From the IMG/VR virus record IMGVR_UViG_3300026274_000001: a DNA stretch of 64,000 nucleotides. The stretch is one strand, 5' to 3'. The DNA comes from a virus. Lineage: Duplodnaviria > Caudoviricetes. The translations under genes were made by a program, and so were the position numbers. A model generated the notes under the pieces. It saw only the letters and a list, made by a program, of their open reading frames with translations. It did not search any database and had not been told where the DNA came from. This document shows, in pieces, positions 1,159 to 61,803 of the stretch. Numbering within the stretch: position 1 is the stretch's first letter; every line of letters begins with the position of its first letter.

Positions 1159-1477
1159 TTGATGCTGTTGACCTTTAGTGGAATAGATTGTTTGGACGGC
1201 GGTTCGATTCCGCCCATCTCCACCACAACAGCCTTTGTAGTTTAGCAATAGACAGGTCTAGGCGGCGCATTGATAAAGCGCATGGGTGCATGATCGAAAG
1301 GGCTGTTATGATGGGGATGACCAGGTTTCGACAGGCGATGACAAAGACTAAACTAGGTATCCGTTGAGATGACGCTCGTAAAGCGCATAAATTTGTAAAT
1401 GCAAACGATAACTCGTTCGCCATCGCCGCTTAAAAACCGGTAAGGCTGAGGGTGGTCCCCTTATAACTGAATAACCC
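1159..1477 (+). ncRNA. ssrA: circularly permuted (two-piece) tmRNA
   Basis: Acceptor piece comes first: T-arm GGCGG-TTCGATT-CCGCC (1198-1214), CATCTCC-A-CCA (1215-1225). Then an 87-nt intervening segment, then the 5' piece GGGGATG (1313), which pairs 7/7 with a G3:U wobble. Tag ORF 1401-1433 = ANDNSFAIAA*. Outer ends are approximate. Confidence 0.92.
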
Positions 1478-1501
1478 AAAAGACGCCGCAAGGCGTCTTT
1501 T
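1478..1501 (+). terminator. intrinsic terminator after tmRNA
   Basis: AAAAGACGCC-GCAA-GGCGTCTTTT. Confidence 0.85.
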
Positions 1502-1610
1502 GCCATGTGGCAATTGAACCATTTTGTTAAGTAGTTGCGCATTCAAGTTGGCTATGTAGAATGGGAACTCCCGAAGTTGATTGGGGAAACGGTACAACTA
1601 GGAGAAGTCA

Positions 1611-1775
1611 ATGACGAATCAACAGCAGTCAGGGCAGAACCAAAATCCGAATCAAGATCCAAGCAAGCAGGACCAGTCTGGTCAACAACAGCAACGACCG
1701 GATCAACAGCACGAAAAGAGGGATCCGAATCAACAACAACCCAACCAGAAGCCGGGCCAACAAGAAAAGATGTAA
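1611..1775 (+). CDS. 54-aa Gln/Asn/Pro-rich low-complexity microprotein (not in ORF track)
   Basis: AGGAGA SD at 1600-1605, ATG 1611; MTNQQQSGQNQNPNQDPSKQDQSGQQQQRPDQQHEKRDPNQQQPNQKPGQQEKM*. Confidence 0.75.
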   Translation: MTNQQQSGQNQNPNQDPSKQDQSGQQQQRPDQQHEKRDPNQQQPNQKPGQQEKM

Positions 1776-1860
1776 CCACTTACTGATGTAAGTTGATGAC
1801 GAGCCTCCGCTGTTAGGGGGCTCGTTTGCTATCACGTTTCATAACTGCAAGGTGTAATCG

Positions 1861-58496: not shown

Positions 58497-59945
58497 ATGA
58501 AACTCTTTTCTGGCATAATTACAATACTTTTTGCATTACTCATATCGGCAACTGCCGCATGGTTTTCCGTAGCTGGTCTTATTGCTTTGTTTGCAGCGAC
58601 CGCTATTCCGGTTATGATCATGGGTACCGTTCTCGAGACTAGTAAGCTCGTAGCCGCAGGCTGGCTACACGCTAATTGGAAAAACCGTAATGTCAATTTT
58701 CTACACAAGTCATATCTAACATTGGCCGTACTTGCTTTGATGTTAATTACATCTATTGGTATATATGGCTTTCTGTCAAAGGGTCACTTGGAACAATCTG
58801 CTCCAGTTGCTGGTATTGAACTACAAGTCAATGCAAAGCAACAACAGATACAAATGTTGACCGATACAAATGCACGATTGACTACTGAGCTTAAACAGCT
58901 TGATGCAAGCGTTGATTTGTTCCTTCAAAGTGGCAAAGCTACCGCTGGGCTTCGTGCCCGTAAAACCCAAACATCAGAACGTGCTGACATTCAGAAACAG
59001 ATGAATGACAACAATGATCAGATCTCAAAACTGAGTGCCGATATACTGCCACTCAAGCAACAGACTGCAGAAGTCGAAGCTAAGTTGGGTCCAGTCAAGT
59101 ACGTTGCACAGTTGTTTGGATGGCAGGATACCGACAAGGCAGTCCGTTTGGTTATTATGGTCATTATGTTCGCATTTGACCCATTAGCCGTTATTTTACT
59201 TTTGAGTGCCACAATTTCTTTTGCTGAATATGTAGAAGAGAAAGCGGCAAAGAGAGAAAAAATGGCCAAGGAGCCCTTGCCATCAAACGAAGACATGCGA
59301 GTGGTATCACCAAGTATGGCGTATTCATCAGAATATCGATTGTCAAAAGGTCAACTTATTGATCCAGTCCTTAACAGTAACAGTGTTACTGTAACAGAAC
59401 CTGGTTTTGATATTACTGGCAATCAAGCAATCACACCTGATCCGAGTTCTCAGGATGAGGTGGCAACAAACGAAAACAATGTTGAAGTAAAGAACGCAAG
59501 TGAAAATACTATAACATCAATTCGTCACGACCTAGAAGATTTACAAGGTCGTATTGAACCCACTTTCGGTACTCCTACAACAGTAGTTGATACCGAAGAG
59601 CCAGTCTTCCAACAAGAAGAACCAGCGCAAATTCACGAAGATAAGCTCGCGGAATTGCGTGCGACTGACCAAATGTCTCCAGAAGTTGGAACTATTGACG
59701 AGGTTGCCCCAGAGACTGCGCCAGAAGCTCACCAAGAGCCCACTGTCGTATTCACTACTCCTGTTGTTGAACTGGCACCTAATGATAAGGAACGTCTTAT
59801 CGAGATCCTCGAGAAACGTCCTGAAATTCTCCAAGACTTAATTGACGTGATTAGTTCACATCGTCAACAAGAAGAAACAACGGTTGCGAAAGCTCCAGTT
59901 GTTAATGCTCCAGTGGTTAATCAGCCAAAGCCTTGGATTAGCTAA
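58497..59945 (+). CDS. conserved large-phage membrane protein with coiled coil and acidic tail
   Basis: ISATAAWFS..GL..LF...MG..LE..KLV.A.WL; GP.KY.A; FAFDPLAV.LL. Confidence 0.8.
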   Translation: MKLFSGIITILFALLISATAAWFSVAGLIALFAATAIPVMIMGTVLETSKLVAAGWLHANWKNRNVNFLHKSYLTLAVLALMLITSIGIYGFLSKGHLEQSAPVAGIELQVNAKQQQIQMLTDTNARLTTELKQLDASVDLFLQSGKATAGLRARKTQTSERADIQKQMNDNNDQISKLSADILPLKQQTAEVEAKLGPVKYVAQLFGWQDTDKAVRLVIMVIMFAFDPLAVILLLSATISFAEYVEEKAAKREKMAKEPLPSNEDMRVVSPSMAYSSEYRLSKGQLIDPVLNSNSVTVTEPGFDITGNQAITPDPSSQDEVATNENNVEVKNASENTITSIRHDLEDLQGRIEPTFGTPTTVVDTEEPVFQQEEPAQIHEDKLAELRATDQMSPEVGTIDEVAPETAPEAHQEPTVVFTTPVVELAPNDKERLIEILEKRPEILQDLIDVISSHRQQEETTVAKAPVVNAPVVNQPKPWIS

Positions 59946-59993
59946 TCGTTAGGACTACATAAATACCTTTACAGGACTTTTAAGGGAATTTTG

Positions 59994-61256
59994 ATGTCAG
60001 ACGTCGACCAAAATCTACATTGCTCTTTTTGTAAAAAAGGAGCCCAAGAAGTAAAGAAGCTTATCGCTGGCCCAGAGTCAGTTCACATTTGTGACGAATG
60101 CGTATCATTGTGCTACAGTATTCTTAATGATACAGAACAGGCCTCATCTAAGCCAGCAGAAACGAAAACAGATTTGGGCGATATTCCAAGTCCGGCAAAA
60201 ATCAAAGGGTTCCTTGACCAATATGTTATTGGTCAAGATTACGCTAAGATGGTTATTTCAGTTGCCGTTCATAATCATTATATGCGTCTCCAAAACCCCA
60301 TCATTGATGAGGTTGAAATCGAGAAGAGTAATATCCTGGTGCTTGGTCCGACCGGGTCAGGTAAGACATTACTTGCGCAGTCAATTGCTCGTTGTTTGAG
60401 CGTTCCGTTTGCTATCGCGGACTCAACTGGCCTCACAGAAGCTGGTTATGTTGGTGATGACGTGGAAAGTATTGTCAGTCGTTTGTTACAGAACGCTGGT
60501 GGTGATGTGAAGAAAGCTGAACAGGGTATCATTTACCTTGACGAAATCGACAAGAAGAGCAAGAAGGATTCAGCTTCTGGCTCACGTGACGTTTCCGGCG
60601 AAGGGGTACAGCAAGCACTGCTGAAGATTATTGAAGGTTCTGATATTATGGTATCGGCGGGTGGCAAGAAAGGGCCAAATGCTGAACAAGTTAAAATCAA
60701 TACTAGAAATATTTTGTTTATCGTTGGTGGTGCATTCGTGGGTGTTGAGAAGGTAGTTGAGAAAGCTTTGAACAAAAACAAGGGTCTTGGATTTGGTGCA
60801 AACTTGAACGACCAGAAGATTGACATAAATGATTTACTGCGTAAAGTTGAACCATCACATTTGATGAACTACGGTATAATTCCTGAACTTATTGGCCGTT
60901 TGCCAGTTATTGCTCCTTTGCAAGAATTGTCAACAGATCAAATGGTTCGTGTATTGACTGAACCCAAAAATGCAATTGTCAAACAATTTGCAAAAATGTT
61001 TAAACTTGAAGGCGTCGAACTTGAAATCACACCAGAGGCCCTGGCTGAGATATCAGAAATCGCAATCAAGCGCAAGACTGGTGCTCGTGGATTACGTTCC
61101 ATCCTCGAAAATAACCTGATTGCAACACAATTTAAGTTGCCAGATCTAGTTGCTGCGGGCGCGACTAAAATTCTAGTAACTCTTGAAACAATCCGTGAAG
61201 GGAAAGAGCCGCAAATCCTTTATGGCAATGATAACAAATCAATTGCGACTCAATAA
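59994..61256 (+). CDS. clpX: ClpX ATPase
   Basis: CSFC...HICDEC zinc-binding domain, GPTGSGKT, GYVG pore-1 loop, DEIDK, RDVSGEGVQQALLK, LGF loop, TGARGLR. Confidence 0.96.
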   Translation: MSDVDQNLHCSFCKKGAQEVKKLIAGPESVHICDECVSLCYSILNDTEQASSKPAETKTDLGDIPSPAKIKGFLDQYVIGQDYAKMVISVAVHNHYMRLQNPIIDEVEIEKSNILVLGPTGSGKTLLAQSIARCLSVPFAIADSTGLTEAGYVGDDVESIVSRLLQNAGGDVKKAEQGIIYLDEIDKKSKKDSASGSRDVSGEGVQQALLKIIEGSDIMVSAGGKKGPNAEQVKINTRNILFIVGGAFVGVEKVVEKALNKNKGLGFGANLNDQKIDINDLLRKVEPSHLMNYGIIPELIGRLPVIAPLQELSTDQMVRVLTEPKNAIVKQFAKMFKLEGVELEITPEALAEISEIAIKRKTGARGLRSILENNLIATQFKLPDLVAAGATKILVTLETIREGKEPQILYGNDNKSIATQ

Positions 61257-61266
61257 CGAGGAAATA

Positions 61267-61803
61267 GTGACACCAAAATTGGAAATGAACGAGCGAATCA
61301 CAAGTCAAAAGGTTCGCTTGATTGACGCACAAGGCGTTCAAAAGGGCGTAGTCAGCATTCGAGACGCCCTGTATCAAGCACGACAAGCTAATCTGGATCT
61401 GGTGAAGATTGCAGAAGCAAACCCGCCCGTTTGTAAGATTGTCGACGCTGGTAAATACGTCTATGAGCAAGACAAGGCAAAGAAAGAACTTGCGAAGAAG
61501 CAGCGTGCAAATGCTGTGGAACTCAAAGAGGTTCAGTTGCGTCCAACCACCGACCTGAATGACATCAAAATCAAGGCACGTAAAGCACGTGAATTTTTGG
61601 AAGATGGCGATAAGGTGAAAGTTGTCATGCGTTTCCGTGGTCGAGAAATCACCCACAAAGAAGTTGGCCAAGCAGTCATCAACCAATTCATCAAAGAACT
61701 TGGTGAAGTGCGTATGGAGCAGCCTGTCACCCAGCAGGGCAACCAAATTACGGCGCTAATCGCCCCGGCAAAGAAAGAAGCCAAACAGGAAAAGGCAGCT
61801 TAA
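61267..61803 (+). CDS. infC: translation initiation factor IF-3
   Basis: NERI....VRLID, LDLV.I....PPVCKI.D.GKY.YE, KEV.LRP, DKVKV..RFRGRE; GAGG SD then GTG 61267. Confidence 0.95.
   Translation: MTPKLEMNERITSQKVRLIDAQGVQKGVVSIRDALYQARQANLDLVKIAEANPPVCKIVDAGKYVYEQDKAKKELAKKQRANAVELKEVQLRPTTDLNDIKIKARKAREFLEDGDKVKVVMRFRGREITHKEVGQAVINQFIKELGEVRMEQPVTQQGNQITALIAPAKKEAKQEKAA

Follow-up and report, generated by a model that had tools for sequence, protein, structure and literature searches.

Does a single huge phage carry its own means of finding stalled ribosomes and clearing them? The question is raised by a 64,000-nucleotide stretch of the virus record IMGVR_UViG_3300026274_000001 (the window, by which we mean this whole stretch). 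A reading of the sequence alone had named in it an Smr nuclease, a transfer-messenger RNA (tmRNA), the unfoldase ClpX, two Pth2 peptidyl-tRNA hydrolases, the initiation factor IF3, an RNA ligase, the tryptophanyl-tRNA synthetase TrpRS and a tRNA, and had proposed that the phage supplies most steps of the rescue of collided ribosomes. All nine named parts are present at or near the places first given to them (ARAGORN, Rfam, Pfam and NCBIfam). With a probability that we put at about 0.5, these genes would form a loosely assembled set of ribosome quality-control tools of host origin, carried as independent units and in no single operon, in which a short Smr protein with a candidate ribosome hook (hook-Smr) looks new; we further infer that they may serve one coordinated collision-rescue pathway.

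A phage Smr protein with a candidate ribosome hook

The question turns first on one small gene:

45332-45694, minus strand: hook-Smr, an Smr-domain protein of 120 residues (Pfam Smr PF01713, 34.8 bits, cut-off 25.7)

Its start is the ATG at 45694, in agreement with the homologues, and a strong terminator lies 3' of the gene (45323-45295). The DLH motif and the altered GxG motif (GKSG) described in the sequence-only reading are indeed there, the sequence reading YDLHG and TGKSG. An N-terminal helix (E6-D7-Q-D-A-W11) is followed by a short linker and by the Smr domain, with D46-L47-H48 and T78-G-K-S-G82. SmrB proteins form a proteobacterial clade typified by an N-terminal '--xxxa' helix (two acidic residues, then three that vary and an aromatic one; E10-DQAL-F15) that hooks the ribosomal protein uS2; by itself, the Smr domain fails to bind the ribosome, DLH is needed in vivo, the middle residue of GxG is dispensable, and SmrA lacks DxH (bioRxiv 10.1101/2021.08.16.456513). 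The phage N-terminus fits the motif of this hook. The likeness to E. coli SmrB (YfcN; disome structure 7QGR) extends to the whole design, namely a stand-alone protein with the '--xxxa' helix (E6-D7-QDA-W11 in the phage, E10-D-QAL-F15 in E. coli), an unstructured linker and, at the C-terminus, an Smr domain with DLH, and the predicted fold matches. Unlike SmrB, the phage protein has 120 residues instead of 183 and a far shorter linker, and its family is encoded by huge phages in the cases checked.

Hook-Smr is a member of a large family of about 115-residue proteins. A search of 1.84 billion representative proteins gave 544 clusters at E < 1e-10, and the best hits listed are about 76-160 residues long (mostly 105-140), most of them aligned over nearly their full length. 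Across 40 diverse members there is no variation at W11, D46, H48, A55, G79 or W91, D7 shows at least 90% conservation, and the family alignment keeps DLHGMTV and TGKSGQI. Two distant members that were looked up (about 30% identity) both lie in huge-phage-like DNA, with topoisomerase or IMPDH-like and queuosine-pathway genes as neighbours; the related bacterial proteins that share these motifs come from Alphaproteobacteria (Rhodopila, Pelagibacterales).

An AlphaFold2 model (mean predicted local distance difference test, pLDDT, 88.3) places a helix at residues 5-15 ahead of the Smr fold. Foldseek matches this model to the Smr domains of MutS2, N4BP2 and YdaL (3qd7) and to the disome-bound SmrB chain 7qgr_v, with root-mean-square deviations of 1.6-2.1 Å to the Smr domains 4och and 2zqe. 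When hook-Smr was compared with solved structures by sequence alone, SmrB was not reached, and the SmrA and MutS2 profile models gave weak domain-level matches only. Docking to E. coli uS2 scored 0.55 (best of three controls, 0.00), with at least 36% of contacts agreeing among runs and a partner pLDDT of at least 66. The mark used was passed by 58 of 80 solved complexes and by 2 of 110 mismatched pairs; passes scoring 0.60 or less included only 7 of the 80 solved complexes and both of the passing mismatches. This is weak support, and since the SmrB-uS2 complex has already been solved, the pass may be memory. Taking motifs and model together, we read hook-Smr as a putative phage branch of the SmrB-type clade that would work like SmrB, strict membership of that clade being beyond the present support.

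The window derives from an uncultured huge phage of soil that belongs to the lineage of Atu_ph07 and Phosso. It has 42.5% G+C and densely packed short open reading frames (ORFs), and exact look-ups found the same DNA on short contigs (60 kb at most) from several soil metagenomes. Complete relatives have genomes of about 450-560 kb; the cultured ones are Sinorhizobium phage Phosso (PV764938, 469 kb) and Agrobacterium phage Atu_ph07 (MF403008, 490 kb), whose ClpX proteins are 58% and 51% identical, respectively, to that of the window and whose Smr proteins are about 30% identical to hook-Smr. Neither megablast with 19 kb against the phage collection nor an exact 35-mer look-up in IMG/VR gave a match. 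A search of IMG/VR with the single Smr sequence gave no match, and the family alignment succeeded, yielding eight huge-phage records of 240-561 kb. The closest complete relative among them, G001 (523,836 bp, with direct terminal repeats and 100% complete by CheckV), has an Smr protein that is 64% identical. All counts of relatives below refer to ten Smr-bearing records (these eight, G001-G008, with Phosso and Atu_ph07), each searched whole. Across them Smr is kept within a block of shared synteny, in most cases 5-15 kb away from ClpX, and the order Smr, small and large topoisomerase II subunits, ClpX, IF3 is common to the window, Phosso and Atu_ph07. From this common gene order, the ten relatives probably form one lineage. 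The hosts of the two cultured phages are Rhizobiaceae (Alphaproteobacteria), whereas the tmRNA of the window best fits the betaproteobacterial two-piece model and the SmpB of G001 is 72-75% identical to betaproteobacterial SmpB, a combined hint of a betaproteobacterial host.

The DNA upstream of hook-Smr varies among strains (45750-46581). One metatranscriptome contig joins 45750 directly to 46581, omitting an ORF of 210 residues (45865-46497); in the JGI contig L042 an Mtd_N-like gene directly precedes Smr, and L044 retains the 210-residue ORF.

Candidate genes for tagging, unfolding and recycling

The steps that would follow an Smr cut have candidates elsewhere in the window:

1110-1524, plus strand: circularly permuted (two-piece) tmRNA (ARAGORN 1133-1524; Rfam 1110-1505)
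4221-4679, plus strand: Pth2a, an archaeal/eukaryotic-type peptidyl-tRNA hydrolase of 152 residues (Pfam PF01981, 67.9 bits, cut-off 23)
6304-6738 (open frame), plus strand: Pth2b, a paralogue of Pth2a (blastp and NCBIfam Pth2)
59994-61256, plus strand: ClpX unfoldase of 420 residues (NF003745, 539.6 bits, cut-off 359; zf-C4_ClpX, 65.5 bits)

The tmRNA encodes the tag ANDNSFAIAA followed by a stop (ARAGORN) and scores 125.6 bits with beta_tmRNA (RF01850) and 123.2 bits with tmRNA_permuted (RF04321), both far over the gathering scores. It has a candidate sigma70-like promoter (TTGACA-17-TATTAT, 1124-1152, 11 of 12 matches) and a 3' hairpin with a T-run at about 1483-1510, and the gene is its own unit. 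An attempt to derive operon structure from promoters was dropped, as sigma70-like promoter counts are at chance level in the window. Permuted tmRNAs occur in seven of the ten relatives, Phosso included; a search of Atu_ph07 with the permuted model gave no tmRNA. The tags of the phage relatives all end in a hydrophobic residue followed by two alanines (I/M/L-A-A). Pth2a starts about 3 kb downstream of the tmRNA, and the same spacing is found in G001 and G002.

The partner proteins SmpB and ClpP had not been seen in the window by the sequence-only reading, and tblastn with the relatives' proteins bears this out: SmpB, ClpP, RF1-like, bS21, polynucleotide kinase and CCA-transferase queries gave noise only. 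SmpB is encoded by two of the relatives, G001 (205.8 bits, over the equivalog cut-off) and G003, and was found in none of the other eight, including Phosso and Atu_ph07. Judged from the gene order in G001, an smpB gene of the window phage would be expected some 147 kb downstream of its tmRNA. Homologues of the G001 protein (74-87% identity) are present on contigs from other samples, two with phage-like neighbours and two too short to judge; a metagenome scan for the window phage's own SmpB was dominated by bacterial SmpB at 65-71% identity. Short frames with an RF-1 domain occur in four relatives (G001, G003, G006 and G007). Their identification as ArfB was rejected: in G001, NCBIfam assigns the frame to the C-terminal half of an RF1-like protein and neither to ArfB nor to PrfH. 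This frame (L085:5092-5652; 187 residues, a PxT-type motif and GGQ) has no start codon and lacks the N-terminal domains, and may be a split or recoded release-factor gene.

Aligned to solved ClpX chains, the window ClpX keeps the zinc finger, the GYVG pore-1 loop and the LGF loop that docks ClpP. A docking loop of the form [ILMF]GF is present in all 11 phage ClpX proteins, and judging by these motifs the window ClpX can probably use ClpP. Both ClpX and ClpP are encoded by every one of the ten relatives. The same holds for Pth2, with one to three copies per genome and three each in Phosso, Atu_ph07 and G001. In the window, Pth2a covers positions 2-112 of the 115 in the Pfam PTH2 profile, and Pth2b is 47% identical to it over 144 residues (blastp, E = 9e-42); both stay under the NCBIfam equivalog cut-off of 126 (72.1 bits for Pth2a; 74.1 bits for Pth2b, over residues 25-142 of the open frame). 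The first ATG of Pth2b (6409) lies inside the conserved domain, and the upstream part of the frame (6304-6408) is open and has no listed ATG, GTG or TTG, so that an unusual start, recoding or decay may be at work.

A single genome, G001, holds tmRNA, SmpB, ClpP, ClpX, IF3, three Pth2 genes and Smr; bS21 is absent from it. As it adds SmpB and ClpP, the lineage owns nearly every step listed by the sequence-only reading. In the scheme that these parts suggest, hook-Smr would attach to host ribosomes by the '--xxxa' helix at its N-terminus, in the way that E. coli SmrB attaches to uS2, and its DxH site would cut the mRNA at collided or stalled ribosomes; motifs, fold and the weak docking prediction are what point to this step. 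The two-piece tmRNA would then enter the resulting non-stop ribosomes with host SmpB, or with a phage SmpB as in G001, and add a tag ending in A-I-A-A. Tagged or other proteins would be passed by ClpX to ClpP, either that of the host or a phage one as in the ten relatives, and the two Pth2 enzymes would release tRNA from dropped-off or cleaved peptidyl-tRNA. The likely benefit would be that ribosomes and tRNAs stay available late in a long infection, when mRNA decay, tRNA shortage or host defences aimed at translation may cause stalling. Adjoining systems, outside collision rescue, would be formed by IF3 (with bS21 in relatives), TrpRS, tRNA-Arg and a pair of RNA-repair genes, RlaP and RNA ligase.

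One toolkit or independent genes

The claim that the phage supplies most steps of collision rescue thus survives in part. It is favoured by the SmrB-like hook and DxH site of hook-Smr and by a lineage that has both SmpB and ClpP in G001; it falls short where the genes are scattered, unevenly present and, for IF3, TrpRS, the tRNA and the ligase, better suited to other functions. The co-occurrence across relatives that had been suggested as a check is likewise mixed, being complete for ClpX, ClpP and Pth2 and incomplete for tmRNA and IF3 (seven of ten each) and SmpB (two of ten). The genes at issue in the last group of functions are:

13171-13248, plus strand: tRNA-Arg (CCU) (ARAGORN; Rfam tRNA, 49.2 bits)
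13272-14306, plus strand: TrpRS of 344 residues (TIGR00233, 225.6 bits, cut-off 176.75; Pfam tRNA-synt_1b, 172.8 bits)
16166-17056, plus strand: RlaP-family nucleotidyltransferase for RNA repair, with a pol-beta fold (Pfam PF10127, 67.7 bits)
18107-19333, plus strand: ATP-dependent RNA ligase of the DRB0094 type (TIGR02306, 181.6 bits, cut-off 151.15; Pfam RNA_ligase)
61267-61803, plus strand: IF3 of about 178 residues (TIGR00168, 174.3 bits, cut-off 60; IF3_N, 90.5 bits; IF3_C, 97.9 bits)

Several observations weigh against a rescue toolkit, beginning with the arrangement of the genes. They are separate units across 60 kb and on both strands, with Smr on the strand opposite to the others; the uneven presence just described adds to this, and since the relatives are probably one lineage, co-occurrence of the parts may reflect shared descent. 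The 3-kb proximity of tmRNA and Pth2 is limited to the window, G001 and G002. The hook-Smr protein itself scores only 16.7 bits on the SmrB equivalog NF003432 (cut-off 128), and its TGKSG loop, conserved within the family, falls one residue short of the HG(H/K)G type and of HGKGTG in MutS2. In the window ClpX the RKH loop reads KKG, and pore-2 has one residue fewer than its E. coli counterpart. The RKH loop of E. coli ClpX shapes recognition of the ssrA tag. Among the 11 phage ClpX proteins this loop varies: the window shares KKG with G001 and G002, RKH occurs in G004 only, three relatives have RKN, KRG and KKN are further forms, and in G003 and G005 the loop is shortened. Its state is unrelated to the presence of tmRNA.

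Gene neighbourhoods in the relatives count on the same side. Smr lies near a CCA-adding or nucleotidyl transferase in both Phosso (L001:20646-24250) and Atu_ph07 (L002:10495-12266), and a further neighbour is a polynucleotide kinase, which carries that annotation in Phosso alone; this context suggests tRNA repair rather than mRNA surveillance. In the window, the ORF beside hook-Smr (44662-45159, 165 residues) was considered as a homologue of the Phosso polynucleotide kinase and rejected as unrelated, so that the window lacks the tRNA-repair setting seen in the relatives; the Smr-neighbour position is taken by this unrelated ORF and an IMPDH/GMP-reductase-like gene. As for IF3, its likely start is the GTG at 61267 behind GAGGA and not 61183 (178 residues are called on the contig L014), which places it 11 nucleotides past the ClpX stop codon. 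The two genes are also adjacent in Phosso, Atu_ph07, G001, G002, G004, G007 and G008. The ribosomal protein bS21 is encoded by eight of the ten relatives (G003-G008, Phosso and Atu_ph07), beside ClpX/IF3 in six and within 7 kb in two; no bS21 was found with Pfam in the window, G001 or G002, and the small ORFs that follow IF3 in the window (61940-62916) match no family. In most relatives ClpX-(IF3)-bS21 is a conserved cluster beside topoisomerase genes, and IF3 with ClpX and bS21 looks like an initiation cluster. The tRNA-Arg gene lies directly upstream of TrpRS, whose start ATG is preceded by GGGGAGG, and RlaP is two ORFs upstream of the RNA ligase, which has an N-terminal OB domain (PHA02142 OB fold). 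TrpRS, tRNA-Arg and the RlaP-RNA ligase pair are better read as tRNA supply and RNA repair than as steps of collision rescue.

The literature also reduces what is new in the proposal, much of the rescue idea being already published. Iyer et al. 2021 (PMC7824862) proposed that PTH2 and IF3 of jumbo phages, the Atu_ph07 IF3 included, rescue ribosomes jammed by cleaved tRNAs, and noted the Atu_ph07 ClpX as a chaperone/translocase; SMR and tmRNA each have no occurrence in that paper. In Atu_ph07, ClpX is one member of a larger Clp/chaperone set: the authors count seven proteins of the Clp type, besides two Pth genes, and link ClpX to replication by its topoisomerase neighbours (PMC6102473). For phages above 200 kb, Al-Shayeb et al. 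2020 (PMC7162821) describe tmRNA, SmpB, IF1/IF3, release factors, aminoacyl-tRNA synthetases, tRNAs and genes for tRNA ligation. Term look-up in that paper, with terms that did not include Smr, gave neither Clp nor peptidyl-tRNA hydrolase; in the present lineage Smr is conserved. The density of translation genes in the window is far above that of ordinary phages and normal for this huge-phage lineage. Atu_ph07 and Phosso share with the window the Smr-topoisomerase II-ClpX-IF3 order and have three Pth2 genes and ClpP each, and Phosso has the permuted tmRNA; they differ from it or from its closest relative in that Atu_ph07 has no tmRNA by the permuted model and neither has SmpB.

Smr-nuclease collision sensing was discovered in bacteria only in 2021-22, and we found no paper tying an Smr nuclease, or collision sensing by Smr, to phages or viruses. 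Most of the kit is already known from huge phages, and the Smr nuclease is the part that looks new. A conserved family of phage hook-Smr proteins would show large phages to be investing in the detection of stalled ribosomes, beyond supplying tRNAs and factors. The two cultured relatives make it directly testable whether the phage rescues ribosomes jammed by host defences or clears host messages.

The best-placed alternative, possible but in our view unlikely, is that these are unrelated accessory genes that resemble a pathway only when listed together. ClpX, with ClpP, ClpA, ClpB, ClpS, DnaJ and Hsp20 elsewhere, would then serve proteostasis, virion assembly or replication control; IF3 and bS21 would re-programme initiation to phage mRNAs, and TrpRS and the tRNA would tune decoding. 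RlaP and the RNA ligase would mend tRNAs cut by host anticodon nucleases, Pth2 would recycle peptidyl-tRNA in general, the tmRNA would be a mere copy of a host gene, and Smr would have some other role on nucleic acids. The scattered genes with their own signals, the uneven presence and the conserved ClpX-(IF3)-bS21 cluster beside topoisomerase genes all fit, as do the proposals of the Atu_ph07 authors, who assign replication control, assembly and aggregate clearance to the seven Clp-family proteins (PMC6102473), and the generality of broad translation gene sets in huge phages (PMC7162821). The window would then represent a typical, already described translation repertoire. What this explanation accommodates poorly is hook-Smr, which joins the ribosome hook of the SmrB clade to an intact DxH and is hard to explain without ribosome contact; moreover, Smr, ClpX, ClpP and Pth2 are kept in all ten records, and G001 adds tmRNA and SmpB.

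The same parts and motifs that suggest a quality-control toolkit would also serve an attack on the host, which we consider improbable. Hook-Smr on host ribosomes would cut host mRNAs (a translation-coupled shut-off), the tmRNA would clear the ribosomes and ClpXP would destroy the tagged host chains, so that ribosomes and amino acids are handed to phage messages. The phage's own variants of the tmRNA tag, the altered RKH loop of ClpX and an IF3 which, with bS21 in relatives, could favour phage initiation are consistent with this. However, there is no sequence sign of discrimination between host and phage mRNAs, and SmrB-type enzymes require collisions for stable binding (bioRxiv 10.1101/2021.08.16.456513). 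A little less probable again is a private, orthogonal channel in which hook-Smr would mark host ribosomes that have stalled or collided, the tmRNA would add its own tags (...AIAA, ...AMAA), and a ClpX rewired at the RKH loop and working on phage ClpP would prefer those tags; if this were true, the phage, and not the host, would choose which messages and nascent proteins are destroyed in infection.

Least probable of all is an Smr protein acting on DNA, as reported in vitro for E. coli YdaL/SmrA and the Smr domains of MutS2, in recombination, repair or genome processing: the gene does share its block with those for topoisomerase II subunits, the Foldseek matches include YdaL (3qd7) and the Smr domains of MutS2, and homologues bear database names such as 'DNA-nicking Smr family endonuclease' and 'MutS2', but these names are automatic annotation, the '--xxxa' helix and DxH (absent from SmrA) mark the ribosome-bound SmrB clade, and MutS2 itself is now known to act on collided ribosomes.

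Traces in RNA libraries and other genes of the window

Six soil metatranscriptome libraries from six studies contain part or most of the tmRNA/Pth2 stretch (shares of 0.26-0.93 of the sampled words), and contigs from four of the six span Smr, ClpX and IF3 with at least 99% identity. This presence is only compatible with expression, as DNA carry-over is possible and contigs give neither strand nor level. All four runs have no cover at about 57581-57685, where the contigs stop with adapter letters; nothing about transcription or the ends of transcripts is therefore concluded from this gap.

Between the tmRNA/Pth2/ligase region and the Smr/ClpX region, the plus strand holds an extended series of ORFs, arranged head to tail and each encoding about 65-140 residues (27500-41700). 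Host-like cargo is found among the translation genes, with a thioredoxin-reductase-like flavoprotein (5221-6210) between the two Pth2 genes. A peptidase inhibitor of the chagasin family (I42) is encoded at 21704-22240 and a membrane protein of the Bax1-I/YccA type at 48778-49470. At 47927-48697, a QueD (6-pyruvoyl-tetrahydropterin synthase) domain follows about 110 extra residues in the same frame; these residues match the Pfam model of the T4 portal protein (gp20) at 32.8 bits, an odd fusion.

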